A stretch of 63,420 nucleotides of DNA, filler included, from Octopus bimaculoides (Eukaryota), in NCBI RefSeq assembly GCF_001194135.2. It is 9 parts of 8 records of this genome, joined end to end, with 100 filler letters (N's around TTAATTAATTAA, not from the genome) between each part and the next. Parts side by side here need not be neighbours in the genome. Positions count along the whole stretch, not along the records: positions 1 to 8,320 come from NC_068996.1; positions 8,421 to 19,843 come from NC_068981.1; positions 19,944 to 32,708 come from NC_068982.1; positions 32,809 to 48,712 come from NC_068997.1; positions 48,813 to 55,936 come from NC_068982.1; positions 56,037 to 58,946 come from NW_026404356.1; 3 more parts are not named here. The stretch is one strand, 5' to 3'. Positions 183 through 57,308 of the stretch are shown one piece after another. The translations under genes and the position numbers were made by a program. The stretch's first letter is position 1, and every line of letters starts with the position of its first letter. The notes under the pieces were generated by a model. It was not told where the DNA came from. It saw only the letters and a list, made by a program, of their open reading frames with translations, and did no database searches.

Positions 183-262
183 AGCTTAAAGCTGTTTCTG
201 CTATAAGTTCTGGTGGACTCCTAATTGAGTACCAGGATAACCTCCTATAGCTTCATCAGAGC
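183..262 (-). ncRNA. Type I hammerhead ribozyme-like motif, long stem II insert, cleavage helix mutated
   Basis: Minus strand: GGCT-CTGATGA-A-GCTATA-(~40 nt)-TATAGC-A-GAAA-C-AGCT-T-TA-AGCT. Core CUGAUGA/GAAA intact, palindromic AGCT loop, stem I GGCT/AGCT; G16.2 changed to T. Confidence 0.55.
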
Positions 263-1974
263 CATTAATATCAAGTGCACTTTATTTGAGAAAATTACAT
301 TTTCAGAACATACCGGCGTTATGTATATATGTGTATGCCTATGTGTATGTATGTATGCTTGTATGTATGTATGTATGTATGTATGTATGTATGTATGTAT
401 GTATGTGTGTATGTACTTACTTGTAAATGGATGCGTAGTTTTCAATTAAATAATATATATATATATATANNNNNNNNNNNNNNNNNNNNNNNNNNNNNNN
501 NNNNNNNNNNNNNNNNNNNNNNNNNNNNNNNNNNNNNNNNNNNNNNNNNNNNNNNNNNNNNNNNNNNNNNNNNNNNNNNNNNNNNNNNNNNNNNNNNNNN
601 NNNNNNNNNNNNNNNNNNNNNNNNNNNNNNNNNNNNNNNNNNNNNNNNNNNNNNNNNNNNNNNNNNNNNNNNNNNNNNNNNNNNNNNNNNNNNNNNNNNN
701 NNNNNNNNNNNNNNNNNNNNNNNNNNNNNNNNNNNNNNNNNNNNNNNNNNNNNNNNNNNNNNNNNNNNNNNNNNNNNNNNNNNNNNNNNNNNNNNNNNNN
801 NNNNNNNNNNNNNNNNNNNNNNNNNNNNNNNNNNNNNNNNNNNNNNNNNNNNNNNNNNNNNNNNNNNNNNNNNNNNNNNNNNNNNNNNNNNNNNNNNNNN
901 NNNNNNNNNNNNNNNNNNNNNNNNNNNNNNNNNNNNNNNNNNNNNNNNNNNNNNNNNNNNNNNNNNNNNNNNNNNNNNNNNNNNNNNNNNNNNNNNNNNN
1001 NNNNNNNNNNNNNNNNNNNNNNNNNNNNNNNNNNNNNNNNNNNNNNNNNNNNNNNNNNNNNNNNNNNNNNNNNNNNNNNNNNNNNNNNNNNNNNNNNNNN
1101 NNNNNNNNNNNNNNNNNNNNNNNNNNNNNNNNNNNNNNNNNNNNNNNNNNNNNNNNNNNNNNNNNNNNNNNNNNNNNNNNNNNNNNNNNNNNNNNNNNNN
1201 NNNNNNNNNNNNNNNNNNNNNNNNNNNNNNNNNNNNNNNNNNNNNNNNTATACATAAATACACACATACACACATACATACACGCATACACATACATGCA
1301 TACATACATACATACATACATATATACATACATACATACATATACATACGTGCATACATACATACATACACATACATACGTACATACATACATACACACA
1401 CACATACGTACATACATACGTATATACATACACACACACATACGTACAAACATACATACATACATACATACATATACATAAATACATACATACATACATA
1501 CATACATACATACATACATACATACGTACGTACGTACATACATACATACATACATACATGCATAAATACATATATACATAAGTAGGAAAAGAGCAGATTA
1601 TAGATGAAATGTTGCTTGATACGGTTGTTTCGATCTTGGTTGTTTCCTAATGTTTTGTTGTAAATATTATTGCTTAATCTTCATTTTTTTTCTTTCATTT
1701 CTTTTGTTCTTTTTTTTTCTTGCTTGGAACGCACGACGAAACCTGGTCAACCAAGCGTGAAATATATCAAACGTTAGAAGCTTAAGTATTGTATCTTACA
1801 ATGCACACACATACACAAGCATCGACACACACTCATGAATATATATACACACATAAATTCGGGCATACATACATAGAAGCATATATACGCACAGAACATA
1901 GATACATACACACATAGATACATAAATATACACATACATACATACATACATACATACATACATACATACATACA

Positions 1975-2005
<31 letters not shown>

Positions 2006-2210
2006 GTTTATACATGATTACGTATGCTTGACTAAGCACGTTATTTACAGTCACAATTAGTCACACAAGCACAGAAATATATACCACATACACAACTATA
2101 CATTTTGAAAACGCTGGCAAATAAAACGACATTCGTACTATAACTATATAAACACTATACTCAACATCTTATTTTTTTAATCTTATTCATTCATTATTAT
2201 TTTATTTTTT

Positions 2211-2447
2211 TACTTGTTTCAGTCATTTGACTTCGACCATGATGAAGCACCGCCTTGAATGATTTTAGTCGAGCAAATCGACCCCAGGACATTTCTTAAG
2301 CCTAGTACTTATTCAATCAATATCTTTTGCTGAACAGCTTAGTTACGGGGACGTAAACACACAAACGCCGGTTGTCAACTGGTTATGAGGGAACAAACAG
2401 ACACAAAGGACACACACACAAATATATATACATATACATATGCGTAT

Positions 2448-2490
<43 letters not shown>

Positions 2491-2648
2491 CACGACAGTC
2501 TTCTTTCAGTTTCCGACTACCAAATCCACTTACAAGGCTCTGGTCGGCCCAAGGCTATGATAGAAGACACTTGCCCAATTTTCCATGCAGTGGGACTGAA
2601 CCGGGAACTATGTAGTTAGGAAGCAAACTTTTTACCACACAGCCACGC
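2211..2648 (-). mobile_element. tRNA-derived SINE family A (bipartite, internal microsatellite)
   Basis: Reverse complement of the copies at 7385 and 58007: tRNA-like head, CORE-like CCTTGGGCAAGTGTCTT, (TA)n/(TG)n middle, tail ...GTCAAATGACTGAAACAAGTAAA. Confidence 0.85.
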
Positions 2649-3573
2649 TCTTGTATTAGAAAAAAATTTTGTAAAAAGAAAAGAGCATGAAAAAAGTAAG
2701 TCCTAAAACATGCTTATATAACACATATACACATGTGCGCGCGCATGCAAACAGACACACACATATACATATATACATAAACCATGGCTTGCCTTCGTGA
2801 CCGAAGATTTACGGTGAGGGACGTTTACATCTCCTGCAAGCTTGGTTCATGCTTGACGAGTCTGATTCAAGAGAAACAAGCAGGATTGCAGAAGCTGAAT
2901 GGGAAGGTAGGTTAATCAGAACTAGTCGTACTCTCGTGGAAGCGTCTTCTAGCTACCAGCAACCCTTTCTTCCAGTAGTAACACAGTCTGAAGACTACCT
3001 GGATGCACCTTCGCACAAAGAACTTGCATGCCATCTATTACATTCTGGTGTGTAAGAGAGACCAGTTCTTTATACTAGTATGAAACATACATACATAGAT
3101 ACATACATACTCACGCATACGCACACACACATATACACATGCATACGTGCATGCACACATACATAGACACATATATACATTCAAACATACATACAATTGT
3201 CATTATAGGTACTTTAAGTTATGTAGCAACAAATTTGCACAAAAATCTAGAATTACTAGATTTCACGGAGATAGAGCAAAAATAGAAAGAAAAAAGAAAA
3301 AGTTTAATGTGGATTCTCCAAATCCACTCTATTAGTGGCACAGTAAAGATTTGTAAGACATTCCAAAAATTCTCCATCTGAGATTCTTTTGCGAATACAT
3401 GCACACACTTGGGTGTATGCATCGACAGTTCAACCAACACACTAACTCAAACACATATTTACTAGCGATCGCTATGAACTCTCTCAAAAAGAAAACTCAT
3501 ATATATATAAAAGTGTGTGTATACACTCCCCACCACACACACACTTACACAGACATATACATGTAGATAAATA

Positions 3574-3670
3574 AGACGGGCTTCTTTCAAGTTCTACATA
3601 ACAGATCCGTTCGCAGTGGGAATGAACTGAGAACCGTGTGGTTGGGAAGCAAGCTTCTTACCGCACAGCC
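3574..3670 (-). mobile_element. SINE family A, left-half fragment
   Basis: Matches family A head (GGCTGTGCGGTAAGAAGCTTGCTTCCCAACCAC) and GAAAGAAGCCCGTC. Confidence 0.7.
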
Positions 3671-3769
<99 letters not shown>

Positions 3770-3789
3770 TGTATGTATGTATGTATGTA

Positions 3790-3822
<33 letters not shown>

Positions 3823-4984: not shown

Positions 4985-5150
4985 ACCCTTATAGACATTC
5001 GGTATTTAAAATAAAATTTTTACAATTAACTATTATTAAGAATTGTTTTTTAAAAAATGTTAAAATAAATGTATTGTAGAAGTACAATCGATTTATTGCA
5101 CATAAATTTTAACAACTAAATCTTTTATGGACCCCGGTTGAGAACCTCTG
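4985..5150 (-). mobile_element. hAT (Charlie-like) non-autonomous element end
   Basis: Terminal CAGAGGTTCTCAACCGGGGTCC on minus strand resembles hAT termini CAGNGGTTCTCAAC; other end not identified. Confidence 0.35.
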
Positions 5151-5186
5151 ATCTAATATATACATATATTCACGAGTGTGTATGGG

Positions 5187-5222
<36 letters not shown>

Positions 5223-5758: not shown

Positions 5759-5828
<70 letters not shown>

Positions 5829-6004: not shown

Positions 6005-6009
6005 CGTTG

Positions 6010-7146: not shown

Positions 7147-7236
7147 TCTCTTACAGCTGTTTCTAGAATAGCCAAACGTATGGCTCATGATATTGAGTAA
7201 GGATTCCATAAGTGGAGTATACCGTCATCAGAGATA
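7147..7236 (-). ncRNA. Type I hammerhead ribozyme-like motif, long stem II insert
   Basis: Minus strand: TATCT-CTGATGA-CGGTATA-(47 nt)-TATTCTA-GAAA-C-AGCT-GTA-AGAGA. Canonical core, GUA cleavage triplet and palindromic loop III; stems I and II partly mismatched. Confidence 0.65.
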
Positions 7237-7384
7237 AAGAAGTCATAAAACAGTGAAAATGATGGAATATCTCTGCTCGATGATATTAGTATATTCCAGT
7301 TAGTCAAAAATGAGGGAAAGATCAGAGTAAGATAGATATGCATTGCGTAGTTCCATGTTCGAATAAATAATACAGTTATAGTAT

Positions 7385-7550
7385 AGGCGCAGGAGTGGCT
7401 GTGTGGTAAGTAGCTTGCTTACCAACCACATGGTTCCGAGTTCAGTCCCACTGCGTGGCACCTTGGGCAAGTGTCTTCTACTATAGCCTCGGGCCGACCA
7501 AAGCCTTGTGAGTGGATTTGGTAGACGGAAACTGAAAGAAGCTCGTCATA

Positions 7551-7595
<45 letters not shown>

Positions 7596-7805
7596 TTGTG
7601 TGTCTGTGCTTGTCCCCCCCCCCACCATCGCTTGACAACCGATGCTGGTGTGTTTACGTCCCCGTCACTTAGCGTTCGGGTTCGGCAAAAAGAAATCGAT
7701 AGAATAAGTACTAGGCATACAAAGAATAAGTCCTGGGGGTCAATTTGTTCGACTAAAGGTGGTGCTCCAGCATGGCCGCAGTCAAATGACTGAAACAAGT
7801 AAAGA
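7385..7805 (+). mobile_element. SINE family A, full length
   Basis: A box TGGCTGTGTGG, B box GAGTTCAGTCCC, CORE-like CACCTTGGGCAAGTGTCTT, (TA)n(TG)n middle, right half ending GACTGAAACAAGTAAAGAGA. Confidence 0.9.
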
Positions 7806-7933
7806 GAGAGAGAGAGAGAGAGAGAGTCCATTAGTAGTTTTAAATGAGAATTGTCGATGATAATCCACGGCAAGGAATAATGGAAGTTACCAGTTTCAAT
7901 TTTGAATACAGGGTACATGACGGTTGAGTAGAA

Positions 7934-8018
7934 CTGATGAAGGAATACTCACCTTATGGAATACTTACTCAGTACCATGATCTATATGCGTGGCTATTCT
8001 AGAAGTTACTGTAAGAGA
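7934..8018 (+). ncRNA. Degenerate hammerhead-like motif, inverted homolog of 7147-7236
   Basis: CTGATGA-AGGAATA-(insert homologous to the 7147 copy)-TATTCTA-GAAG-TTACT-GTA-AGAGA; GAAA and helix III mutated. Confidence 0.45.
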
Positions 8019-8320: not shown

Positions 8321-8420
8321 NNNNNNNNNNNNNNNNNNNNNNNNNNNNNNNNNNNNNNNNNNNNTTAATTAATTAANNNNNNNNNNNNNNNNNNNNNNNN
8401 NNNNNNNNNNNNNNNNNNNN
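8321..8420. other. Assembly gap placeholder (44 N + TTAATTAATTAA + 44 N)
   Basis: Same 12-mer inside N runs at 8365, 19888, 32753, 48757, 55981, 58991, 61017 and 62211; it gives stop codons in all six frames. Confidence 0.95.
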
Positions 8421-9028: not shown

Positions 9029-9058
9029 GTTACGAATACACCATAGATTCTTCGTCAG
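9029..9058 (-). ncRNA. Degenerate hammerhead-like core
   Basis: Minus strand: CTGACGA-A-GAAT-CTATGGTGT-ATTC-GTAAC (GAAA changed to GTAA); helix III and stem I not recoverable. Confidence 0.3.
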
Positions 9059-9777: not shown

Positions 9778-10420
9778 NNNNNNNNNNNNNNNNNNNNNNN
9801 NNNNNNNNNNNNNNNNNNNNNNNNNNNNNNNNNNNNNNNNNNNNNNNNNNNNNNNNNNNNNNNNNNNNNNNNNNNNNNNNNNNNNNNNNNNNNNNNNNNN
9901 NNNNNNNNNNNNNNNNNNNNNNNNNNNNNNNNNNNNNNNNNNNNNNNNNNNNNNNNNNNNNNNNNNNNNNNNNNNNNNNNNNNNNNNNNNNNNNNNNNNN
10001 NNNNNNNNNNNNNNNNNNNNNNNNNNNNNNNNNNNNNNNNNNNNNNNNNNNNNNNNNNNNNNNNNNNNNNNNNNNNNNNNNNNNNNNNNNNNNNNNNNNN
10101 NNNNNNNNNNNNNNNNNNNNNNNNNNNNNNNNNNNNNNNNNNNNNNNNNNNNNNNNNNNNNNNNNNNNNNNNNNNNNNNNNNNNNNNNNNNNNNNNNNNN
10201 NNNNNNNNNNNNNNNNNNNNNNNNNNNNNNNNNNNNNNNNNNNNNNNNNNNNNNNNNNNNNNNNNNNNNNNNNNNNNNNNNNNNNNNNNNNNNNNNNNNN
10301 NNNNNNNNNNNNNNNNNNNNNNNNNNNNNNNNNNNNNNNNNNNNNNNNNNNNNNNNNNNNNNNNNNNNNNNNNNNNNNNNNNNNNNNNNNNNNNNNNNNN
10401 NNNNNNNNNNNNNNNNNNNT

Positions 10421-10480
10421 TTCCCTTCGTCGGCGTTCGACAGCTGATGACCTTGGTGAGAGAGACAAAAACCTGGCAAA
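10421..10480 (-). ncRNA. Partial hammerhead (5' half) plus foldback arm, remainder in gap
   Basis: 10421-10440 is identical to 10766-10785 (CGAACG-CCGACGA-AGGG on minus strand); 10441-10480 resembles the reverse complement of 10700-10740. Confidence 0.5.
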
Positions 10481-10588
10481 TTTATATCTTCTTTTCCAGT
10501 GAAATTCTTCACTGATATTGAAAAGGTGAAAACAAGCAATGTTAATTCTCTAAATGAAGTATTAACAGTAACTGCACGATAAAGTGTA

Positions 10589-10785
10589 GTATATTGCCAC
10601 TTAAGTGTGGCTGACCCCTAGGGGTGGATGTTACTGTTGCTTTTAGCCCCAGGAGGACATCTCCTCCAGCTGGCTTATCGACACACGACTGTGTCCTGTT
10701 TGCCAAGGGAAGTTATCCCTCTCACCTCGATCAGCAGCACGAACGTATCCGGATTTCAGGGTTATTTCCCTTCGTCGGCGTTCGA
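10589..10785. mobile_element. Foldback/MITE-like element arm ending in a hammerhead
   Basis: Shares TAGCCCCAGGA.GA.ATCTCCTCCAGCTGGCT..TCGACACAC with the palindrome at 20591-20892; truncated by (CA)n. Confidence 0.7.
10740..10784 (-). ncRNA. Minimal type I hammerhead ribozyme (U4C variant)
   Basis: Minus strand: CGAACG-CCGACGA-AGGG-AAATAA-CCCT-GAAA-T-CCGG-A-TA-CGTTCG. Perfect 6-bp stem I, 4-bp stem II, palindromic ATCCGGAT helix III and AUA triplet; core CCGACGA rather than CUGANGA. Confidence 0.7.
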
Positions 10786-10873
10786 TACACACATACACAC
10801 ACACACTCACACAAACACGCACACACACACACACACACATACACACACACACACAAACACGTACACATATGTG

Positions 10874-16579: not shown

Positions 16580-16783
16580 AAAGCACTTTTCACGCCGAAT
16601 GAAATACTTATCGGCATTTCTTCCGGCTCTTTTATGTTCTGAGTTCAGATTCTGCCGTGGTCGACTTTGCCTTTCATCCTTTCGGGATCGATAAAATAAG
16701 TACTAATTGAGTACTGGAGTCGACGTCATCGACTTACTCCCCCTTCCAAAACTTCTGACTTTGTGCCAAAATTTGAAGCAATT

Positions 16784-19129: not shown

Positions 19130-19843
19130 AAGATACCAGGCAAAGCTAGTCCACCGGTAAGCTCACGAAGACCTTCTACCCCACCTTTTCTCCAGCAAGG
19201 ACATCATCTACATTGACTTAGTTCCCTCGGGCCAAACGGTCAAGAAAGAGTATTTTGTGAAGATTTTGAGGGCGTTCAGAAAGAAATGTTCTCAAAGATG
19301 GCCGGACCAATTACACCAAGGCAAAGCAGCAGTTCTCAGTTCCCTCCTGGTATAGGCGCAGGCGTGGCTCTGTAGTAAGAAGCTTGCTTCCCAACCACAT
19401 GATGATGATGATGATGATGATAACGACGGCGATGATGACGGTGACAATCCTCATGATGGATCAATTATTGCCTTATTATCTATCCAGGTGTTGGTGTGTT
19501 TATGTCCCCGTAATATAGCAGTTCGGCAAAAGAACCGATAGAATAAGTACTAGGCTTACAAAGAATAAGTTCTGGGGTTGATTTCTTCGACTAAAAAAAA
19601 ATCCTTTAAGGCGGTGCTCCAGCATGGCCGCAGTCAAATGACTGAAACAAGTAAAAGAATGAAAGAATAACCAGCCACTTGACAGAGGTGAGCACCAAAA
19701 CTGTCCTTCGCCCTCTCTACAATCCAGGCCTTGTTCCTTGTGGCTTTTTGCTGAAGTTACAAGGAACAAGCTGAAGAATATGAAGGAGGTTGTGACAAGG
19801 CTCCTGAAGACCTTCGCTCTGAAGGACTTCCAATAGGGACGCC
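19130..19843 (+). mobile_element. mariner transposase relic interrupted by SINE A (19355-19665)
   Basis: SSKDIIYIDLVPSGQTVKKEYFVKILRAFRKK before, and TKTVLRPLYNPGLVPCGF (degenerate YSPDLAPCD) after, the SINE. Confidence 0.7.
19355..19665 (+). mobile_element. SINE family A, internally rearranged
   Basis: Family A head, (GAT)n, family A right half ending GACTGAAACAAGTAAAAGAATG. Confidence 0.75.
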
Positions 19844-19943
19844 NNNNNNNNNNNNNNNNNNNNNNNNNNNNNNNNNNNNNNNNNNNNTTAATTAATTAAN
19901 NNNNNNNNNNNNNNNNNNNNNNNNNNNNNNNNNNNNNNNNNNN

Positions 19944-20240: not shown

Positions 20241-20590
20241 CACATGTATGTGTATATATATATATATACATATATTGTATGTCTACACGTGTGTATATGC
20301 AATTACTACAAGCCAAACTTTGTGAATGTTTTACAAGTTTTACATATTTCCACAGTTCCACCAATGTCGCGTAATTGCAATTTCCTAAACAACCGAGTTT
20401 TTCTAGTTTTGTAAACCCCTCTCGCAGCCAAACCAGTTAGTTACATATTCATCATCCCCAATAATTACAGGTATTCATCTAAAGCTATAGTCCAGTTGGA
20501 TCATCGATAGATTTCTCATTAGTTCGACACAGAGGTTTTGTTTTCCACTAATCTTTAACATTATCTCGTTAACATTTTAGTAACTCCGCT

Positions 20591-20892
20591 GATGCTACTG
20601 TAACTTGTAGCCCCAGGAAGATATCTCCTCCAGCTGGCTATTGACACACTATCTGTGCCCTGTCAGTATTTGCAAAGGAAAGTCCCATCGCCAACCGGTG
20701 ATTGTCACACGCTGAGGACGAGTCAATACCCAGAAACTCAGGTTGGAGATGGGAAGGATGGCTTCCCTTTGCAAATACTGATAGGACACAGAAAGTGTGT
20801 CAATAGGCAGCTGGAGGAGATGTCTTCCTGGGGCTACAAGCTACCGTAGCATCTCCCCTTAAGGGTTAGCCACATTTAGGTGGCAAATATAC
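20591..20892. mobile_element. Palindromic foldback element (~105-bp arms) with hammerhead-like loop
   Basis: Arms 20591-20696 and 20741-20853 are reverse complements; 20854-20892 matches the reverse complement of 10589-10628. Confidence 0.8.
20712..20746 (+). ncRNA. Degenerate hammerhead-like core in foldback loop
   Basis: CTGAGGA-CGAGT-CAAT-ACCCA-GAAA-C-TCAG-GTT-GG; core present, stems II and I mismatched. Confidence 0.4.
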
Positions 20893-20896
20893 TTCA

Positions 20897-20942
<46 letters not shown>

Positions 20943-25599: not shown

Positions 25600-27180
25600 A
25601 GTACTGGCCCAGGCCATGTGTAGCTTAATAGCACCACCTGGCAAAGTCATTCAAATCTGGAATCGGACAACATGGCCCACTCAAGGAGAGAGTTGTTTGC
25701 GGAGAGATATCCGGGTGTAGGAGGTTTATCTGGAATTTTTGGAAGGAATTTGTCCAATGACTTCTGAAACTTTATGGGGTCTGTTTCTGCTTTAATGTAT
25801 TTTAGTGTAATGTTAAAGTGAGCGGGGCCAATTGAAGTGAAATAATTATGCCGTGTTGTTGTTATGTGATGTGAGTATGATTTATGTTGTGGACGGATAA
25901 CACGGGGTCCAAGTCTTGGGTGTATCTTAAAGGCGATGCCAACATCATTTGAGCAATGCTGGTGGAATATGAATATTTCCCACATCATGCAGATGATGAA
26001 GCGCTCACGGCAGCGTTGGATGGAATAAAGCTTGAGCTTTTCTAGTCGACCCCAATAGTCAAGGTCTGTCATGCCATCTGTCTTTTTAGTAATTGAGCTT
26101 CGAGATGCTTCAATTTTCATGATACTTTGTTTCGTGTGAGGAGACCACAGTGGAGAACAGTATTCGAGGTGGGGTCGGGCAAAAGTAGAGAAGAGAAGGA
26201 TAATGGTGTGGATGTCTCTCGACTGGAAAGTTCTGAGAATCCAGGAACATATTCTGCGAGCCATGTCAACTTAGTTGTTTAAATGAGCGGCCCAGTTTCT
26301 GCTGTTGTCCACAATTACTCTCAAGTCTCTGATGTTGTTGGATACCATGAGAGTTTCACCCGATGGAAGGGAGTATGGGAATTTCAATGTATTCTCTATT
26401 CCGAAGTAAATTAATTCAAATTTGTCCTCGTTCAGCAGCATATTATTCTTTCCCCCCCATTGGATGACAGCCAATAGATCTGACTGAAAGCATGTCCGGT
26501 CACCCACTTCATTGATGACCCTTTGGATCTTGGAATCAACTGCAAAGATTCTTATGTTGTTTTACTTGATGATATCAGTAATGTCATTGGTGTAGATGAT
26601 GAAAAGAAGTGAGCCCAACACATTGCCTTGTAGAACACCACTACTGAATTTGGCTGGGCTTGATTTTACTGTTGAATAAAGCACCTAATGCTGTTAAGGC
26701 ATTCATTAAAGCGCAGTATGGGTGTTTGAGGTGGCCTATACAGCTCACCTACTATCAGGTCAGTGGTTTTGTTGTGCACGGTGACCGATTCACAGTAGCC
26801 ATTGGAGAATGTCATATTTCTATATCTCGAAAAGGAATCCTGCAGGAAAATGGTAGTTCCACCCTTCCTTCTGTCGACTCGATCTGCGTGGATGGTTGTG
26901 AAATTCCTCACTTTCACTTCGTCTTTCAAGTGGGAATTGTCAAGGTGGGTCTCGGTAAGAATGAAGAAAGGGATGTGGTGTGGATGGTTACCAACCCAAT
27001 CTTCAATGAATTGGATCATCCATTTTTGTGCATTGATGGGGGGACTGACACCTTGTGCATTGAGTAGAAATGTGGAGGCTAGCGTAGTAGCAGGTTTTGA
27101 CTGCTGCAGGGGGCTTTTTTCTGATTGTGTGTTAGTGACAGCAATGTGGGGAGTTGGTGCACAGGGGTAATAGCATAGGA
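25600..27180 (-). mobile_element. CR1-like LINE, internally deleted pseudogenized ORF2 (APE N-terminus + RT motifs B/C to 3' end)
   Basis: APE: LLNAQG..ILTETHL..DRVDRRKGG; RT: SGVLQGNVLGSLLFIIYTNDI..FAVD; C-terminus RPHLEYCSPLWSP..RLEKLKLYSIQRCRER..DKFLPKIPDKP. Confidence 0.9.
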
Positions 27181-27329
27181 TCGTATTGAGGGATTGCTAA
27201 AGGGTTCTTTTTGTATCTCTTTGGCCAGACTCAAAGCTAATATCACCTGGCTTGACTGTAATGACATCAGTGGATTCAAATAAAGCTTGAAGAGTAGGGG
27301 AAAGAACAGGGCACGCCCTCGTCTGTAAA

Positions 27330-27984: not shown

Positions 27985-29030
27985 TAATCATATTCTATGG
28001 ACACGAATGGGTCTTTTGGGGCCTGGTGGTGCCTTGCAAACCTTTTGGTAAAGGGAACAAGTTGAGGACTCAGTTTGCTTGCATGTATGTATGTATATAT
28101 GTATGTATGTATGTATGTACATGTGCCATTATTCAGTTTATTTCATGGTTTCTTGCCAATAGAGAAAGAACCGGTTTCTAACCTTGATCCAAGGCTCCTT
28201 CATTGGAATTTCAACATCAACAACAAACTATATTTGTTTGTATGTATGTATGTATGTATGTATGTATGTATGTATGTGCATATTTGTATGTTTTATGTAT
28301 GTATTCTCGTGCATATAGTTGCATATCTGGAAATGCTCATATATATTTAAATGATAAACTTCAGGAAAGTTTCACAGATTTTTACACTTCCAGTGTTGGA
28401 TTGGATCTGTAGTCTTCGAATTAGTTTTCTCCTTTCTAGTTTCGAGAAGCCTAATTTCTCAAGATTGGTATTTAGGCAGTGTGTTACATATCCCAGGGCC
28501 CCAATAATTACAGATATAAACCTTTGTATGCATGTATGTATGCAGCTGGTAATTGAGAGAGGGAGGTACAAGACCGCGATGGATGGAGGAAGATAGTGCA
28601 TGATGGTTGTTCAAGGTTTGAGAGGGAGAGAGTGAAGTATGAGAGAATTAGGAGGGGGCTTAGAAGGAGGGACCTATGGAGAGTGAGAGAGTGTTGCTTT
28701 TTATATGTGTGGGTTGTAGGTGGAGGTGTTTGAGTCGTGCAGGCCTGGTGAGCCATCAAAATTCTCATAGAAATCGACTCATGATAAGCAATGCTGTGGC
28801 TATTAAAATTCATAACAGAACGTGTGTAAAATGTAGAAGGTTGTACCTCTCAGTTGGAGGTCTAAAAAGCCATGTTAAGAGAGTGCATATGGTGGCACCT
28901 GTTTCTCCTGCCAGCCAGCACGGTTGTCTAGTATGTAATAAAATGTGTAAAGGCTTGGCCGGGCTTAAAAGTCATATAAGGGCATCACATGGCAACAATA
29001 ATGAATCATTTCAGTAAGTCTTCTCGGCAA
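27985..29030 (+). mobile_element. RTE-type LINE 3' relic with three C2H2 fingers, interrupted at 28080-28542
   Basis: IFYG..W*REQVEDS / SLLAC|MYAAGN*EREVQDRDGWRKIVHDGCSRFERER, then three CxxC..HxxxH motifs (ORF 28676-29017). Confidence 0.75.
28094..28528 (-). mobile_element. 5'-truncated RLE (R2-superfamily) retrotransposon, CATA-associated family, copy A
   Basis: RFISVIIGALGYVTHCLNTNLEKLGFSKLERRKLIRRLQIQSNTGSVKICETFLKFII*; flanked by direct repeat TGCATGTATGTATG (28080-28093, 28529-28542). Confidence 0.8.
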
Positions 29031-33260: not shown

Positions 33261-33619
33261 ACGACTCAGATATGCATAGATAATACATAGATACATACTT
33301 ATCTACATATATGAATATTTATACAGATGCATATATATATATATATATATATATACATACCTTCGTACATGCATATTTACATACATATCTACATAGATAG
33401 AGTCAACAAATGAGATCAAAAGTATCTCAATATAGAAAACACTTAGCGATCAAATGATTTGAATTTACACTCTGATATCCTCACCGAGGATAAAGTGTGG
33501 CTATACGTGGGATCTAAGTGACGAGATATGGAGACAACGGTTTAAATGAATATATAAAACTTTGGGTTTTAATGTACAAATAATATATACATGTATACAT
33601 GTGAAAAGAGAAGGCAGAC

Positions 33620-34240
33620 TAAAAAATTTTGTGTTACACAGTACATTCTTAAAAATTGTTGAAGAGCTACCTCATCCGTGCTTTCCTTATTTAATTTTCT
33701 TAAAGCTCTTTTGAAGGTATCAACAAAGCATCCTGCCTGTCCATTAGATCTGAGATGATATGGCCCCGTAGTTATATGTTCTACCGCGAACATTTCACAA
33801 TTTTTTTTTAGATTCGCTAGACACAAATTGCGTTCCATTGTCGCGTCTGGGATGCCAAATCTCGCGAACACTTCGTGTAGAAAATTTATCAGAGTTGAGG
33901 AAGTTGGTATTTTACACTTAACAATTTCAGGTCATTTCGAAAAATAATCATTTACCACTAAATAGTAAGAAACATTTTACAGACTAGCGAAATCGATGTG
34001 TAGTCTCGACCACGGAACATTTACTTTTGACCAAAGTTCCTATTTTACAGTGAGTAATTTTGCTGTGAGACCACATCCTTTACAGCCTTTCACCAAATTT
34101 TTGATTTCTTTGTCCATCTTTGGCTAATATACATAACTGCGCATAAACGCTTTCATCCTTGAAATACCTGAATGTCCGACGTGAATTTCTCTCAGCGTTC
34201 TCTTTTGTAGTGTTTCCCGTATGACTATTCTCTGTGCATA
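33620..34240 (-). mobile_element. Ty3/Gypsy integrase pseudogene fragment
   Basis: ..HSGISRMKAFMRSYVY..PWSRLHIDFAS..FARFGIPD..EHITTGPYHLRSNGQAGCFVDTFKRAL (zinc-binding and catalytic-core regions, frameshifted). Confidence 0.85.
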
Positions 34241-34344
34241 CATCAGTACGCCATCACATGTTGAGTATATATTCCGGTCTTGGATTTTTCTTATTTTCTT
34301 TTGTTGACCATAATGGTCATTTTGTTTCTTTTATAAATTTGTCT

Positions 34345-36744: not shown

Positions 36745-36779
36745 AGACGTGGGTTGAAGAGAGAAACAGAAAGAGAGTT

Positions 36780-37370
36780 CCACGTAGTGTGTACGCTGAT
36801 GTTCACAGATATCACCCGTTGTACCAGTTTAACACTACGCTTGTATGTAACCGTTTACCTAAAGCTAATAAACCGGATATTCTTGTGAAAGACCAAAACA
36901 ATGAAGTTTGTTTATCGATCGACATGAGTATACGTTGTGATCATAATATCTCGGCAAAAGCATTTAACAAGATTAGAAAATGTAAATATTTGCTCAATGA
37001 AATCAAAAAAATGTGGCATCTCAAAGCAATTTCAATACCAGTGATTGTAGAAGCATTTGGAATGATCCAAAAAGGAACTCAAAATTATTTGAGAATGATT
37101 CCTGACTTACCATCGCTGCCAGAAGTGCAAAAGATTGTTATAACTGGTACGCCTCACATATTGAGAGGAACATTGTCGCTGTGAGACCGATTCCTACCCA
37201 TATCATTAAAAAAAAAATTTCCCCACATCTTCTAATTATATTTTGAAAATGAACAATCCGGTACGTTTATTTCGATGGCCCATCAATGCATGCAGTAAGT
37301 TTATTTGCCCTGGGTGTCGGCAAGAAATGGAAACAAATTGAAAGGGGGAAAAACTCAATAATAACCAATA
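36780..37370 (+). mobile_element. R4/Dong-like retrotransposon RLE domain and 3'UTR
   Basis: ANKPDILVKDQ..CLSIDMSIRCD..KCKYLLNEIKKMWHLKAISIPVIVEAFG..VQKIVITGTPHILRGTLSL*: PD-(D/E)xK-type restriction-like endonuclease. Confidence 0.85.
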
Positions 37371-38551: not shown

Positions 38552-38777
38552 CAGAAGAAAGAGAAATGTGTGGTTACGCAAGCGTTCAGCTTCCTAATAC
38601 TTTAATCATAGACCGATACACATGCACAATTTCAGTATCTGATAACAATATTCCGAAGTGTATGTTGACATGAATTTCGTTATCTGAATATATGTTGCCT
38701 TAGAAACCACTAGTTACTAGCAACTTCAACCATGTCGTTATTAAGGACTTACAATATTAAGGACTTACAATATTAAG

Positions 38778-38812
38778 GACTTAGTTTCGTCGTATATTTG
38801 CGACTTCATCAG
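38778..38812 (-). ncRNA. Minimal hammerhead core with disrupted stem I
   Basis: Minus strand: CTGATGA-A-GTCG-CAAATATA-CGAC-GAAA-C-TAA-GTC; perfect core, 4-bp stem II and GUC triplet; stem I partner displaced by a 16-bp tandem repeat. Confidence 0.6.
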
Positions 38813-44555: not shown

Positions 44556-45613
44556 AGGATGTAGACTGATATTTGGAGTCTACATCCTATCCCTGGATTA
44601 GAGATGGGATGTAGACTCCAACTAAGTCAGTGACTTGTGCGGAGTCGGATGATCCACTCACTATATCGAAAGCGTCAGCTCTATCTGCTCTACACCAGAA
44701 TTTGCTGTCAAAATCCACCTGGGTACCCCAAGCTGCTAGTATTATATCAATATATTGACGGAATAAATCGTAGTTAGACTTAGCAAATATCAGGGCTTTA
44801 TTGAGAAGGATGATGTTAGTAGTACTACAATAGTTATCTGTAGCTTTTGTGTCTCGGGAGAGTCATTTTCTTTTTGTGCTTTATAATTTAACACACTCAT
44901 CGGTGTAATTTCCACTTATTTCTTATTTTTATTTTCCTAAAATTTTCGTTGCGTCTTGCAATCTTTTCAATAGTCTTAAGACTATTGAATTATAGATTAT
45001 AAGGCACAAAAAGAAAATGACTCTCCCCAGACACAACAGAATATGCTTCAACACACGAACTCACATAAAGAATCGTGCAAACCAAATCCCAAAACGAAAT
45101 ATCTATATCTAGTTGTAGGAATTTGCTATTTAAGCTTATGTCTAGTTGCTTAAGCTACGCTATAATCGACGGGTGTCAGACCACAAGGCTAATCGTATCT
45201 TAGATTTGAGAGTAGGTGCTATTCTATCTTTAATTATCTTACTAATCTGGCCTATGTTGGATCTAGACGGGGCAAATTAGTCTTACTGAGGGGTTGGTTA
45301 AGAAATTGGGTGATTTTGAGTTTCCTAAGGGCACATGGTTCTGTTCTATCGTCTATCTCTAGCTTTCTAACAATTTCTAAGCCTCTGGCGTCAATGATAT
45401 TTAATATATCTATGCTTGAATGCTTGTGTCTATCATTCAGTTCCTTCGCAATTAAACTTTTATATAATTCTCTATTGATAATGTAGACATTACCGGTTTT
45501 GTCAGCTGGTGCAATAATCTCGGGAGCTTTCTCGAAGTAGACAAGTAACTTTTGAAGCTATTGTTGGTGTTTTCGGATGGTGGTGGGGTATTTCCTGAAT
45601 CTCTCACTAAATG
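44556..45613 (-). mobile_element. Penelope-like RT relic, left arm of head-to-head palindrome, with foldback insert
   Basis: Reverse complement of 45666-46440, visibly diverged (roughly 80-85% by eye); encodes LLNKALIFAKSN..FDIVSGSSDSAQVTDLVGVYI. Confidence 0.85.
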
Positions 45614-45665
45614 TGTGTGCTGTTTTGGTGTATGAATTTAATCCGTTCTCGGTATCCGGCCCTAG

Positions 45666-47240
45666 CATTAAATGTGAGATTCAGGAAATACCCCACCGCC
45701 ATCCGAAAACACAAACGAAAGCTTCAAAAGTTACTCGTCTATTTCGAGAAAGCTTCCGGAATTATTTTACCAGCCGACAAAACCAGTAATGTCTACATTA
45801 TCAATATACAATTATATAAAAGTTTAATTACGAAGGAATTGAATGACAGATACAGACATGCAAGTATAGATATATTAAATAACATTAATTCTAGAGGCTT
45901 AGAAATTTTTAGAAAGCTAGAGATAGCCGACAGAACAGAACCAGCTATAGATAGAACACACCCCTAGGAGACCCAGAATCATCCTAAAAGATCACAACCT
46001 AATTTCTTACCCCCCCCCCCCAGTAAGACTGATTCCGCCACTTTAAATACGATATAGGCCGGATTAGTAAGATAATTGCCGATAGAATAGCACCCAGTCT
46101 CAAACCTAAGATACGATTAGCCGTGTGGTCTGACAATCGTCAAGTATAGCTTGGTTTAAGCAACTAGACATAAACTTAAATAGCAAATTCCTACAACTAG
46201 ATATAGATAACTATTATAGTATTATTAACCCTGTCCTTCTCAATAAAGCCCTGATATTTGCTAAGTCTAACTCCAATCTATCCCGTCAAGAAATTGCTAT
46301 AATACTAGTAGCTAGGGATACCCTGGTAGATTTTGACAGCAAATTCTGGTGTAGTGCAGATAGTGCTGACGACTTCGATATAGCAAGCGGATCATCCGAC
46401 TCCGCACAAGTCACTGACTTAGTTGGAGTCTACTTCCTATCCCTAATACGAGATCACAAAAATACCACTCCATATTTAACAGGCATAACGTGAAGGTGTC
46501 ATACGCAATCTCCTCCAGCTTGAAGCAGCATAAGCACCGAATCAGCAACAGGATGCTAAACAAGGGCTCGAGCAACACCCCCAGGGAACCCTCAACTAAT
46601 GTACCTGTATACAATGCTCACTCGACCGACCGCCAGGAAGGGTTACGCATAGGAACCCATAGCATGGACCTATCGGGAAATAATAACAACCAAATTCTAA
46701 GTAACCCAGAGAGTCTGCATAACAATAACATAGTGAAAACGAACTGACATGTAACGAGAACGACGGGAATAACGGAATACAACTAGTCACTAACAGCAGC
46801 CAGCAATAGGTGCTCGTGTAGGGACAAATCAAGGTACCCACTCGGTAATCTCTGCACGATTTGCAACATCGTATATAAATGCACAGTGCACACACGAGGA
46901 GGCCCGTGTGTGTTCATAGGTGTCACGGACGATTCATTCAAGAATCGATATCTCAACCACATTTCAACTTTTAAGAAAATAACTACGAGACACACAACAT
47001 CACTGGTGGAATTTCTGTGGAAACTGAAATCAGATAAGATCAACTATGTATGAACTGTCCTGGGCACTTGCGAGACACGCAAAACCATACAGCACCCTTT
47101 CTAGGGGGTATGGGTAGTGCTTGGAAGAATTTTTGTCCATTTTACTAACTAGAGAAAGAGTAATTAACACATTAACTGAATGAATTGCACGCTGCACACA
47201 CGGTAAAAAAGCCAGCTGCACCCACTACAACATCCCAGCG
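45666..47240 (+). mobile_element. Penelope-like element (Neptune-like), internally deleted: RT N-half, linker, GIY-YIG endonuclease
   Basis: PADKTSNVY; FLQLDIDNYYSII (motif A); FDIASGSSDSAQVTDLVGVYFL (motif B); HSIFNRHNVKVSY; CSCRDKSRYPLGNLC; NIVYKC..FIGVTDDSFKNRYLNH..LWKLK..WALARHAKPY. Confidence 0.9.
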
Positions 47241-47675
47241 TTCCCACAGCCATATCTTGCACGCACCGAGAAACCCAAGCTGGGAAAATACCAACAGATG
47301 TATCTATGTATGCATCCACACATGAATGTAATTACGGTTATATCTTCCTAAGTATGCATGTATCCTGTATAAGTCTGTGCTTGTATATATGAATGCACGC
47401 TATATAAAAAAAATACACAAATATAAATGTACGTGTGCGTGTATTTGTCTGTGTGTATGTATATGTATATATGTAAATGTGTATATGTGTATTTACACAC
47501 GCACACACACACACATAAATGTAAGGATAACCAAGTTAGGCAGGTCGATATACAAAGAATATTAAATACATCAATTACAAAAAAGTATATATATGCTTAC
47601 ATGCAAAAAGGTTCGACTTACACAGAATAGAAATGATACCAAGAATTAAAGGACGTTGGAGAAGAGTATTACAAA

Positions 47676-47766
47676 TCCAACGGCCGTTTCTGGGGGCTTG
47701 GTAGTCCAAAATAATGTTTGTAGATTGATTTCATCGTTGGATCAGACGAGCCTCTGTCTTCAGGGA
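47676..47766 (-). ncRNA. Type I hammerhead ribozyme-like motif, long stem II insert
   Basis: Minus strand: TCC-CTGAAGA-CAGAGGCT-(50 nt)-AGCCCCCA-GAAA-C-GGCC-GTT-GGA; canonical core, palindromic GGCC loop, GUU triplet, 3-bp stem I. Confidence 0.6.
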
Positions 47767-47921
47767 ACAAATATTACATTTGAGGTGATGAGAGAAAGGA
47801 GATTAAAGATATTCTATAGATGAACAGAATAGACTAAGCGGAGCAGAAGCACACACTAAGACGGAAAGTGCCGCTGAAAAGGTCACAGACGTATGACGAA
47901 AGGCTTTCGGACAATGGACAC

Positions 47922-48010
<89 letters not shown>

Positions 48011-48604
48011 AGCTTTATATGTACGTGTATGTGCATTTAGCTATATATGTATGTACGTATGTGTGTGTGTATTTATATGTGTGTGTGTGTATGTGTATGT
48101 GTGTACGTGCGAGAATGTGCGTCTGTGTACCCATGGGTCTGTGTAGGTGTCGGTGTAAGTGTAAATATAGATAGATGCGTATATATACATACACCGAGTG
48201 ACACTTGTGCGCATATAAATGAGTCTATGTCTGTGTATATGTCAATGCGTACTTGCATGTGCCAATATGGGCGGAGCTGTAATTTAACAGGATGTTTGAG
48301 TTGATTTGCCGTTTGCTCGTTCCATGCATATTTGGGATGGGCGGTTGTGTGCCATCTAATATCTTTTCATCCTGTTTTGTATATTTTAATGGGTCAACTA
48401 TGAAAATTGGATTTGAATGGTTTCTGTTTTTATTGGCAGTATATTACTAATAATAATAATAATAATAATAGCAATACTAATGGGACCCCGAGGAGATGGA
48501 GTATCCTATATTTTATAATATTTTTTTATATGTATTAATCATTCTGGATGTTCCATCGAAATGTTCATAGGTCAATTTCATTATTATTATTATTATTATT
48601 ATTA

Positions 48605-48665
<61 letters not shown>

Positions 48666-48855
48666 AAAGTATTTTCAATGGATCAGTTTTGAGCTCTATT
48701 TAAAGTTGATATNNNNNNNNNNNNNNNNNNNNNNNNNNNNNNNNNNNNNNNNNNNNTTAATTAATTAANNNNNNNNNNNNNNNNNNNNNNNNNNNNNNNN
48801 NNNNNNNNNNNNACATGAATACATACACATACACACATACATACATGCATGCATA

Positions 48856-52676: not shown

Positions 52677-53332
52677 AGGCGGCGAGCTGGCAGAGACGTT
52701 AGCTTAGCACGCCGGGCGAAATGCTTAGCGGCATTTCGTCTGCCGTTACGTTCTGAGTTCAAATTCCGCCGAGGTCGACTTTGCCTTTCATCCTTTCGTG
52801 GTCGATTAAATAAATACCAGTTACGTACTGGGGATCGATGTAATCGACTTAATCCCTTTGTCTGTCATTGTTTGTCCCTTCTATGTTTAGTCCCTTGTGG
52901 GCAATACAGAAATAAGAAACGTTAGCACGTCGGGCGAAGTGCTTAGCTGTATTTCGTCTGCCGTTACGTTCTGAGTTCAAATTCCGCCGAGGTCGACTTT
53001 GTCTTTCATCCTTTCGGGGTCGATTAAATAAGTACCAATTACGCACTGGGATCGATGTAATCGACTTAACCCCTTTGTCTATCCTTGTTTGTCCCCTCTA
53101 TGTTTAGCCCCTTGTAGGCAATAAAGAAATAATAAATGTTAGCACGCCGGCGCCGGGCGAAATGCTTTGCGTTATTTCCTCTTTTCTGAATTCAAATTCC
53201 ACCGAGGTTGACTTTGCCTTTCATCTTTTCGGGGTCGATAAATTAAGTACCAGTTGCGTACTGGGGTCGATGTAATCGACTGCCCCCCCTCCCCCAAAAT
53301 ATCGGGCTTTGTGCCTAGAGTAGAAAAGATTA
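52677..53332 (+). mobile_element. Head-to-tail SINE B trimer
   Basis: Three colinear units with junctions at ~52914 and ~53135. Confidence 0.92.
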
Positions 53333-53799
53333 TGGTGTTCGATACTTAACAATAATAGTGCTGCTGCTGCTGATGTTGATAATGGTAATAAGGAAGAGGA
53401 AAATTATGAAAATGATGATACTGATGATGATGATGAGGAAAAAAGAGAACAAAAAGAGAAAAATGATAATGATGGTGATGATAAACACAGAAAAACAGGA
53501 AGATGATGTCGATGTCGACTACGATGGTGGTGGTAGTAGTCGTGATTGATAATGATGAAAATCACGTGGCTGTTGCCGTGAGGCGAGACAGGAAAAGAGA
53601 TTTTTATAGTATGAGAGTCAGTTTCGACGATGATTATTTTCTGAAATTGGAGAGTTATAAGTTTCGATGTAAATATTACTTGAAATAAAATCAAAACATA
53701 AAATGAAACTTTTCAATAAAAATAGCCTTTTTATCGATTTAGAAAAAAGTAACAAACTACAAAAAATACCATAATAATGATAACTGTTTCTGATTTTAG

Positions 53800-55351: not shown

Positions 55352-55396
<45 letters not shown>

Positions 55397-55530
55397 TGAT
55401 AACAGTTGTTTCAAATTTTGGAACAAAGCCAGCAACTCCAGAGGCGGGATTAAGTCCATTACTTCAAATTCAGTGTTCAGCTAATATGTAATTTATCGAT
55501 TTCGAAAAGATTAACGGCAAAATCGAACTC
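53800..55530 (-). mobile_element. Cluster of older SINE B-related copies
   Basis: About six diverged GAAAGGATGAAAGGC..ATTTGAACTC blocks, interleaved with LINE ends. Confidence 0.65.
54030..54365 (-). mobile_element. CR1-like LINE 3' end
   Basis: GIVSYTNSRMRRHCIVPKIPASPSKYRTRYCNRLS, then GPQLFSILPKCLRD..KLDLLLSKVVPDEPTSQQETQMRAAASNSL (frameshifted). Confidence 0.75.
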
Positions 55531-55651
55531 GGACCCGCATGACTTAAAGATTCATGAGCGCGCAGGACATCTCATCACATTGCAAAAGGCATCTTTTAGT
55601 CATGTAGCGCTGAGTCAAACTGTTATTAAGACATATGTATGTGTGTATGTG

Positions 55652-55697
<46 letters not shown>

Positions 55698-55699
55698 CC

Positions 55700-55739
55700 G
55701 GCCATGACGAAGGGAAATAGCCCTGAAACTCGAGTCGCC
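55700..55739 (+). ncRNA. Bare minimal type I hammerhead
   Basis: GGC-C(A)TGACGA-AGGG-AAATAG-CCCT-GAAA-C-TCGA-GTC-GCC; palindromic ACTCGAGT helix III, GUC triplet, one extra A in the core; same stem II as 10740-10784. Confidence 0.65.
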
Positions 55740-57120
55740 TTTATATATATATATTTATATTTATATATTTATATATTTGATCCTTTATATTGAACACTCA
55801 ATATTTCATCTACATTCAATACTTTCTTTCATGGTGCCATCCATTTTTATTTTATTTTATTTTATATTGTATATTGTATATTATATTATATATTGTATAT
55901 TCCATATTCTATACCCCACATTAGTTCTGCAGGAATNNNNNNNNNNNNNNNNNNNNNNNNNNNNNNNNNNNNNNNNNNNNTTAATTAATTAANNNNNNNN
56001 NNNNNNNNNNNNNNNNNNNNNNNNNNNNNNNNNNNNATGTATATATATATATATATGTGCATATATAATTACATGAAACTCTCTTGTAGAGATGTTTTTT
56101 CTCTGTAAATTCATTTTTTTTGTAAGCCTGCCACCCCTTCCCTGCTGATCTCCCTCCCCCTTCCTGGAGAAAAGGAAAGAGAAAAGTAAGGCAAAAATAG
56201 TTGAAGACTGAAAGAAATCAGAAATGATAAATGAATGTTTTAAATGTCCCATATGTTAGTGATCATCATCATCATCATCATCATCATCAATATGGTGATT
56301 ATTATCATCATCATCACCATCAATATTGTGATCATCATTTCATCATCAATATCATGATTATTATCATCATCATCATCATCAATATTGTGATTATTATTAT
56401 TCTTATCATCATGATCATCATCATAATGTTCATTATCATCATCACTATCATCGTCATCAACATCATCATCATCACCATCATCATCAATATTGTAATAACT
56501 ATTATCCTCCTCATCATCATCATGATCATTATCTTCATCATAGATATATATATATATATGTGTGTGTGTCTGTGAGTGTATGAATATATNNNNNNNNNNN
56601 NNNNNNNNNNNNNNNNNNNNNNNNNNNNNNNNNNNNNNNNNNNNNNNNNNNNNNNNNNNNNNNNNNNNNNNNNNNNNNNNNNNNNNNNNNNNNNNNNNNN
56701 NNNNNNNNNNNNNNNNNNNNNNNNNNNNNNNNNNNNNNNNNNNNNNNNNNNNNNNNNNNNNNNNNNNNNNNNNNNNNNNNNNNNNNNNNNNNNNNNNNNN
56801 NNNNNNNNNNNNNNNNNNNNNNNNNNNNNNNNNNNNNNNNNNNNNNNNNNNNNNNNNNNNNNNNNNNNNNNNNNNNNNNNNNNNNNNNNNNNNNNNNNNN
56901 NNNNNNNNNNNNNNNNNNNNNNNNNNNNNNNNNNNNNNNNNNNNNNNNNNNNNNNNNNNNNNNNNNNNNNNNNNNNNNNNNNNNNNNNNNNNNNNNNNNN
57001 NNNNNNNNNNNNNNNNNNNNNNNNNNNNNNNNNNNNAAATATGTTGCTTATTTTTTGGTAGTTTTTGACTTATTTAGTTCCTCTAAGCGTGAGGCATTAC
57101 TATATAGTTAATGCCCTTAT

Positions 57121-57159
<39 letters not shown>

Positions 57160-57225
57160 GAATAGTAAGAAAATGGAAATGTTGAAGTTAATAAGAGTTT
57201 ATTATCAGCAAAAAATCTATCATTA

Positions 57226-57308
57226 TCCCTTACAGCTGTTTCGGTTAAGCTTAGTGAAATTAAATAAGTATTAAAATGATATTTCTGAGCTTTATCTCTT
57301 CAGAGAAA
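57226..57308 (-). ncRNA. Type I hammerhead ribozyme-like motif, extended stem II
   Basis: Minus strand: TTTCT-CTGAAGA-GATAAAGCTCAG-(30 nt)-CTAAGCTTAACC-GAAA-C-AGCT-GTA-AGGGA; canonical core, G-C closing pair, 9/12 paired stem II, 5-bp stem I with G-U pairs. Confidence 0.7.

Follow-up and report, generated by a model that had tools for sequence, protein, structure and literature searches.

Hammerhead ribozymes of Penelope-like elements (PLEs) have been known since 2014 to be dense, solitary and divided over multiple families, and solitary copies without an open reading frame (ORF) are the norm (Cervera and de la Pena, PMC4209133). PLE-associated variants with a short palindromic helix III cleave as dimers (Lunse, Weinberg and Breaker 2016, via PMC6765202), and an inverted head-to-head arrangement has been described for PLEs (PMC8557442, PMC4209133). 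One Hydra-clade PLE with a hammerhead, Hydra-1_Obim, comes from Octopus bimaculoides (Craig et al. 2021, PMC8557442, Files S1 and S2). Another type of carrier, the metazoan retrozyme without long terminal repeats (LTRs), or non-LTR retrozyme, measures 170-400 nucleotides (nt) with a GC content under 45% (PMC7229834). Here, we analyzed a stretch of 63,420 nt from the O. bimaculoides assembly GCF_001194135.2, hereafter the window, in which a sequence-only reading had noted about a dozen type I hammerhead motifs. We consider it very probable that these are real type I hammerhead motifs of several families, most likely left by PLE machinery: 5'-truncated, solitary PLE 3' ends together with copies of a head-to-tail 345-nt repeat, probably a non-autonomous retrozyme. 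Both kinds are already known from other animals, and the octopus case is a new example. The best new item is a very abundant candidate retrozyme family, represented by the 345-nt unit.

Hammerhead sites in the window

The window contains 7,042 N, has a GC content of about 35%, and is dense in microsatellites and rich in copies of short interspersed nuclear elements (SINEs). Its 56,378 non-N bases were scanned with a scored descriptor requiring the hammerhead core with at most one mismatch, helices I and II, and helix III, under strict and relaxed settings. The chance level was taken from 257 local dinucleotide shuffles, and the reversed window served as a second control. The strict setting returned 4 sites, against a shuffle mean of 0.06 (maximum 1), and the relaxed setting returned 12, against 1.18 (maximum 4). 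Scores of 18 or more were reached by 6 sites, against 0.035 in the shuffles, and the reversed window gave 1 strict and 2 relaxed matches. Hit density is therefore well above that of dinucleotide-shuffled sequence, the comparison that the sequence-only reading had singled out as able to refute it.

Direct reading of the sequence identified hammerhead-derived sequence at all 11 places reported earlier, 8 on the minus strand (183, 7147, 9029, 10421, 10740, 38778, 47676 and 57226) and 3 on the plus strand (7934, 20712 and 55700). Two more sites, 47874 and 48488, had been overlooked, which brings the total to 13 (Table 1). The density is one site per 5.1 kb for the 11 sites and one per 4.3 kb for the 13, so that the earlier estimate of roughly one per 6 kb is borne out at about one per 5 kb. 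The relaxed matches at 16625, which falls within a SINE copy, 20455, 23528 and 36042 were treated as likely chance.

The core (CUGANGA with GAAA..UH) has no mismatch at 183, 7147, 47676 and 57226, and one at 10740, 48488, 55700 and 47874. Helix I is absent at 7934, 9029, 20712 and 38778. Near-complete copies are present at 183, 7147, 10740, 47676, 48488 and 57226, and also at 55700, apart from its core change. Thus, only about half of the copies look intact, and the damaged half is unlikely to be active.

At least three designs can be distinguished: a short canonical one (10740, 10421, 55700 and 20712), a minimal one with a bulged base before the G10.1-C11.1 pair (9029, 38778 and 47874), and one with a long helix II region of 54-66 nt (183, 7147, 7934, 47676, 48488 and 57226). 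BLAST tied only 7147 to 7934, plus the members of the 345-nt-unit group to each other, and detected no similarity between the other families outside the core. Because of this, the window holds at least five or six hammerhead families, which agrees with the earlier proposal that several distinct mobile families, akin to PLEs and non-LTR retrozymes, carry the ribozymes. A (TA)4 sequence lies within 200 nt 3' of the cut site at 7 of 11 sites, against 12.5% of 5,000 random places (p ~1e-4); sites 9029 and 10421 were left out of this test, having no cut site.

Table 1. Hammerhead sites and associated features, in window coordinates.
Coordinates	Strand	Feature	Details
184..262	-	Type I hammerhead	Helix II region of 54 nt with A.A at base; palindrome of helix III off by one base; (TA)n 154 nt past cut
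7149..7234	-	Type I hammerhead	Helix II region of 61 nt; AGCT fully palindromic
7934..8013	+	Decayed copy of 7147 family	GAAA box and palindrome broken; 5' strand of helix I lost
9029..9058	-	Half hammerhead	Core, bulged A, 4-bp helix II with G10.1-C11.1, GUAA; SINE starts a few bases 3'
10420..10440	-	Start of second head-to-tail copy of 345-nt unit	21 nt identical to 10765-10785; cut by 642-N gap 9778-10419
10441..10785	-	Complete 345-nt retrozyme-like unit	44% GC; rod-like predicted fold
10740..10784	-	Hammerhead of the unit, canonical size	Helix I 6 bp; helix II 4 bp + 6-nt loop; helix III 2 bp + CCGG
20590..20684	-	Inverted partial copy of unit tail	Unit positions 72-160; head-to-head with 20708 copy; E 3e-11
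20708..20898	+	Decayed relative of unit	Unit positions 4-203; E 2e-23; ends at (TA)n
38777..38812	-	Minimal PLE-type hammerhead	Core intact; bulged A; helix II of 4 bp with G10.1-C11.1; helix I does not form in register
44597..45620	-	Inverted arm of Hydra-clade PLE	Mirrors ~45660-46447; 79-88% identical, interrupted
45611..47216	+	Decayed Hydra-clade PLE ORF	Stops, frameshifts, internal deletion
47676..47766	-	Type I hammerhead	66-nt helix II region, C.A at base; perfect GGCC palindrome; U at position 17
47871..47910	+	Minimal hammerhead	One core change; PLE ORF strand; ~650 nt past ORF; 18 nt before (TA)n
48484..48573	+	Type I hammerhead	C at core position 4; helices I and II of 4 and 12 bp; palindrome off by one base
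55700..55739	+	Retrozyme-family fragment, hammerhead only	Within (TA)n; TCGA palindrome; change at core position 3
57226..57308	-	Type I hammerhead	AT-rich helix II region of 54 nt; AGCT fully palindromic; 5-bp helix I; (TA)n 74 nt past cut

The palindrome of helix III was analyzed in candidates chosen without a palindrome filter (n = 6), compared with 111 candidates from 194 shuffles. The palindrome is full in 4 of the 6, against 1 of the 111, and at least two of its three pairs are palindromic in all 6, against 15 of the 111. All four loop III palindromes named in the sequence-only reading are present: AGCT at 7147 and 57226, CCGG at 10740, GGCC at 47676 and TCGA at 55700. In the five intact palindromes, the helix III hairpin is unfavourable (+2.4 to +4.8 kcal/mol) and the 8-bp self-duplex favourable (-10.7 to -14.1 kcal/mol), and these energies therefore fit the published dimer model. 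The self-duplexes of the two palindromes that are one base off reach only -1.8 and -3.7 kcal/mol.

The differing but paired stems had been taken earlier as covariation. This holds for helix III of 10740 versus 55700, where a double-sided change converts pair 15.2-16.2 from U-A to C-G and the loop from CCGG to UCGA. Elsewhere it does not hold in the strict sense, as most differences are between families with no similarity detected beyond the core, and covariation between homologous copies is limited to this one case. The differences between 7147 and 7934 look like decay, RNAalifold returned no consensus pairs for the six long-helix-II copies, and in the 345-nt unit the pair is kept at only 2 of 5 paired variant positions (variants from run contigs).

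For the minimal design, a half-motif filter (core plus a 4-bp helix II with G10.1-C11.1) was written after the sites had been seen, using the consensus of PMC4209133. It found three half-motifs (9029, 38778 and 47874), against 0.06 in 408 shuffles. Outside the octopus, the core pattern of the retrozyme had no matches in metagenome contigs, and that of the long-helix-II design matched 9 viral and 43 metagenome loci, nearly all of them without helices. The two of these 52 loci that were inspected lie in or against long ORFs; the set is usable as a chance control and not for a link to PLEs. One look-alike in locus L034 (4003-4091, minus strand) passes the type I descriptor with a score of 21.3 within an apparently archaeal ORF, most likely by chance.

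The 345-nt retrozyme-like unit

At a distance of exactly 345 nt downstream, the opening 21 nt of the 10740 ribozyme appear again, at the edge of the 642-N gap. The ribozyme carries a C at core position 4 and is predicted to cut after 10746. The unit (GC 0.443) has a predicted linear fold of -121 kcal/mol (z -7.7; none of 100 shuffles as good), a rod with paired ends, and folded as a circle it reaches z -8.0 with helices I and II formed. Its stop-free segments have no Pfam match. Altogether, five pieces of this family are present in the window. In the relative at 20708..20898, the hammerhead remnant (20712-20745), recognised by its homology to the 10740 unit, misses 16 nt including the cleavage site and has no helix I. 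Judged by its anatomy, the unit is likely a non-LTR retrozyme.

Sequencing runs were available as contigs only. The stretch is contained, wholly or partly, in 20 of 24 runs, ten of which are flagged as possible sources; five presumed-RNA runs contain 71-77% of its words, and two of these five runs carry a second organism label. Four of the 24 runs were placed on the unit, the DNA run X3 and the presumed-RNA runs X15, X16 and X19, and all three of the latter cover it. X3, one of the possible sources, has 9,255 contigs on the unit; their depths add up to 1.1-2.5 million in 27 of the 29 bins and to less in the two end bins, and because of this evenness the whole unit is the repeat. This depth is not a copy number; if coverage is taken to be 20-100-fold, it suggests copies numbering on the order of ten thousand or more. 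Head-to-tail joins are visible from loose ends, in X3 (8 and 16 contigs) as well as in X16 and X15; one X15 contig crosses the join, and one X3 joint has a 346-nt period.

A single variant is listed for the 10740 ribozyme, an A-to-C change at position 17, where either base is allowed. Two X19 contigs end one base before core position 4, as a C/U branch would cause, and the C at that position may not be fixed in the family. Three A-to-G differences on the ribozyme strand were considered as RNA editing, which was rejected because the same differences occur in the DNA run. In X16 and X19, the depth over the hairpin-rich tail (10560-10700) is several-fold that over the ribozyme, whereas the DNA run is flat. 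The loose ends in these two runs match the 20712-type subfamily, and a shorter family sharing the tail may be the more transcribed one. A share of 0.07 in the insect metatranscriptome run X20 was regarded as no evidence.

Long-helix-II and minimal hammerheads and neighbouring elements

In the long-helix-II design, the base of helix II is either a direct G-C or a mismatch followed by G-C or G-U. The 7147 copy is 77% identical to the 7934 copy over 161 nt, from the core in the 3' direction; the two are head-to-head, 700 nt apart, with a SINE in between. The highest descriptor score in the window belongs to the 48488 hammerhead. It sits (48455-48660, plus strand) between an upstream (AAT)n and a downstream (ATT)n tract, and pairing of the two tracts could make helix I much longer. 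By eye, the helix II regions at 183-262, 7149-7234 and 7934-8013 have in common a hairpin with a TTAT loop as well as a TACTCA motif, and in one stem GG/CC is turned round to CC/GG; a shared multi-branch helix II domain is hinted at, which automatic alignment did not recover. A guessed piece of PLE reverse transcriptase (RT) at 48228-48443 (minus strand) was rejected, as the search returned one unrelated repeat protein.

The minimal hammerheads at 9029, 38778 and 47874 have an extra base at 9/10.1 together with G10.1-C11.1. At 38778, three 16-nt tandem copies (38740-38785, minus strand) begin at the cut site. Their potential pairing partner is a TAAGG located 9 nt upstream of the core, as though an insertion had pushed helix I out of place. 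The third site, 47874, is likely the 3' end of a Hydra-clade PLE, to which it is linked by position.

This PLE contains the DKT motif, RT pieces, a Cys linker, a GIY-YIG endonuclease and a C-terminal C..E..N..CxH, with one linker Cys and one CxxC Cys changed. We assign it to the Hydra clade from these sequence motifs and a by-eye likeness to Hydra-1_Obim. Its atlas matches, which come from one source, are to a GIY-YIG cluster (0.96; 12% of its members have the family) and to an RVT_1 cluster (0.90; 19%), and the endonuclease piece falls near a cluster in which Mollusca is the commonest recorded phylum. Used as a query in a protein search, the GIY-YIG piece found nothing. The 47676 hammerhead lies antisense within the stretch 3' of the ORF, and 48488 is located further on, on the strand of the ORF. 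Inverted head-to-head copies are thus found at three places in the window (7147/7934, 20590/20708 and 44597/45660).

The window also contains other elements. The segment 28664-29014 (plus strand), stop-free and exon-like, has C2H2 zinc-finger matches (E 7e-6, below the curated cut-off) and retrieved one unnamed, 59%-identical protein as a protein query; it is probably an exon of a host gene. By eye, we take 25647-27196 (minus strand; an endonuclease piece and an RT C-terminal piece) and 36753-37184 (plus strand; a restriction-like endonuclease end) to be remnants of long interspersed nuclear elements; the latter found nothing as a protein query. An integrase-like LTR retrotransposon remnant is located at 33569-34330 (minus strand; Integrase_H2C2, E 5e-4, below cut-off), and a mariner-type transposase fragment at 19161-19352 (plus strand; Transposase_1, E 2e-4). 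At least two SINE-like families are very abundant (e.g. 16591-16720, 52708-52831 and 7383-7800), one of which gave the false relaxed match at 16625. The eight joins between the parts of the window (e.g. 8321-8420, 19844-19943 and 48713-48812) consist of 44 N, TTAATTAATTAA or a 12-nt spacer, and 44 N, and are scaffolding artefacts.

Origin of the motifs and relation to known systems

Following published work (PMC4209133, PMC6765202, PMC7229834 and bioRxiv 10.64898/2026.07.22.740005), a transcript across tandem copies would bring two hammerheads together, and the palindrome would let these ribozymes form a joint 8-bp helix in place of a weak 2-bp hairpin. Both would then cut after position 17 and release unit-length RNA, which a host ligase would close into a circle. 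The RT and GIY-YIG endonuclease of a PLE would copy such RNAs from the 3' end into (TA)n tracts, where early stops would leave hardly more than a ribozyme with a short tail. Lone copies, like damaged ones, would be relics without activity. A more far-reaching version, which we put forward only tentatively and would not favour outright, is that octopods possess an unreported non-LTR retrozyme of tens of thousands of copies, still transcribed, whose dimer-cut, rod-shaped 345-nt circles are spread by Hydra-clade Penelope elements, beside a hammerhead variant with a structured helix II domain of 50-60 nt.

Several results weigh against an origin from PLE machinery. Only one of the 13 sites (47874) was counted as downstream of a PLE ORF. 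The sequence-only reading had already placed most sites apart from such an ORF, in keeping with the published norm for these hammerheads. Between the ORF and 47874 lie the 47676 hammerhead, on the opposite strand, and microsatellites, so that their link is one of position only. The six long-helix-II sites have no ORF tie: a Pfam scan of all 248 stop-free, non-low-complexity window segments of at least 50 amino acids gave no RT or GIY-YIG, yet it missed the Hydra-clade remnant too. No similarity was found between the 345-nt unit and the PLE in the window. In Rfam, no hammerhead family was returned at E values up to 5 in 10420-10790 and 47600-47930; over the whole window, there was none among the best 150 of 379 matches, which were mostly microsatellite-driven microRNA and similar families. 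As single motifs, 11 of 12 sites have z above -1.1, i.e., they fold no better than shuffles. As for activity, a C at core position 4 reduces it in vitro (PMC3088659), and 8 of 9 Xenopus retrozyme dimers did not cleave in vitro (bioRxiv 10.64898/2026.07.22.740005). Because the presumed-RNA runs are seen as contigs, ends, strand, level and circles are not visible in them, and the joins in these contigs show no circle because the join also exists in DNA.

The alternative that survives best places the long-helix-II hammerheads (183, 7147, 7934, 47676, 48488 and 57226) in additional non-autonomous families and not at the ends of PLEs that code for protein. An upstream ORF remnant was identified for none of the six, and their helix II regions, at 54-66 nt, are longer than the ones that PMC8557442 (File S2) gives for Hydra PLE hammerheads. 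However, none of the six is tandem in the window, and PLE hammerheads have a larger helix II and are mostly alone (PMC4209133). Long loops 2 are listed in File S2 too, for two plant PLE-X1 elements, as is C.A or U.U where helix II begins, and the 7147/7934 pair, on opposite strands 700 bp apart, is PLE-like. We regard this alternative as rather unlikely.

A little less likely still is that the 345-nt repeat is a plain satellite or SINE-like sequence, derived from a PLE tail and spreading as DNA or as a linear transcript, with the hammerhead as a passenger and no circles. This would suit the DNA joins, which make a circle unnecessary for those in the presumed-RNA contigs, the lowered in vitro activity expected from the C at core position 4 of 10740, the 20712 relative without a cleavage site, the depth peaks of X16 and X19 over the tail rather than the ribozyme, and the inactivity of most Xenopus dimers tested. 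On the other hand, the palindrome is kept through the helix III changes between 10740 and 55700, and the sole listed variant of the 10740 ribozyme is allowed either way. Moreover, the whole unit folds far better than shuffles, and retrotransposition is suggested by the scattered fragments that have inverted arms at (TA)n.

It is very improbable that some copies were domesticated as intronic self-cleaving elements near the zinc-finger gene with the exon at 28664-29014: isolated conserved hammerheads are known in amniote introns (PMC3088659), but the copies here carry unrepaired mismatches and deletions, and cleavage is not expected of lone copies whose helix III is weak. Finally, chance matches in repeat-rich, AT-rich DNA, of which about 1.2 at the relaxed setting are expected per window and one, the archaeal look-alike, turned up among the 52 viral and metagenome core-string loci, are refuted for the set by the enrichment over shuffles and the homology between copies, although single weak sites such as 9029 are not provable individually.

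The 345-nt unit would extend non-LTR retrozymes to a cephalopod, beside a candidate autonomous partner that shares their insertion signature of (TA)n targets and inverted arms. The preprint linking retrozymes to PLEs states that its own test of this link did not go beyond vertebrates (bioRxiv 10.64898/2026.07.22.740005). So abundant a family would supply thousands of copies for a study of covariation and an easy test for circular RNA. No general idea is changed, since dense PLE hammerheads were known before. Literature searches aimed at octopus retrozymes or hammerheads turned up no report of the 345-nt family, and the supplementary lists of PMC7229834, the preprint and PMC5785218 may include it; the main texts of PMC7229834 and the preprint do not mention 'octopus'. 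Octopus genomes hold many Penelope families, and the accessible text of PMC13282606 and PMC8967140 has no mention of hammerhead or ribozyme. That of PMC13282606, the 2026 curated annotation, does not mention retrozyme either, which suggests a gap in octopus repeat annotation.

The 345-nt unit resembles metazoan non-LTR retrozymes such as the 350-390-bp mussel repeats (PMC7229834; bioRxiv 10.64898/2026.07.22.740005) in being non-coding, arranged head-to-tail and provided with one type I hammerhead per unit. Shared features include a 6-bp helix I, a 4-bp helix II, a 2-bp helix III with a palindromic tetraloop, strong self-pairing, a predicted circle that keeps helices I and II, and many solo fragments. 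It differs in that A-U, not G-C, closes helix II and, in the window copies, in the C at core position 4. Its abundance, which was not measured as a copy number, looks far above the ~5,000 mussel motifs. Unlike the published retrozymes, it is known here from DNA and contigs, with circles and cleavage predicted.

The window PLE is similar to the Hydra clade (PMC8557442) in having DKT for DKG, an RT followed by a C-terminal GIY-YIG, a Cys linker, and CxxC and CxH around E and N, and likewise in its inverted 5' arm, its (TA)n target, and a likely 3' hammerhead in which an additional G precedes helix II and loop 2 has 8 nt. It differs from Hydra-1_Obim in being decayed, by eye of a different family, and in its hammerhead sequence.

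The window sites share with the PLE hammerheads of PMC4209133 a solitary, dispersed occurrence in several families, a short helix I, a larger helix II, the extra base at 9/10.1, G10.1-C11.1, the palindromic 15.2-16.2 pair and loop 3, and opposite-strand pairs 100-700 bp apart. Six of them differ in their helix II region of 54-66 nt, which in four of the six has A.A or C.A mismatched at the base. Mismatches in this place, a U at position 17 and long loops 2 are already present in File S2 of PMC8557442, and U.U at the base has been published in axolotl. Their short palindromic helix III is the one found in the dimer-cleaving PLE variants (via PMC6765202).

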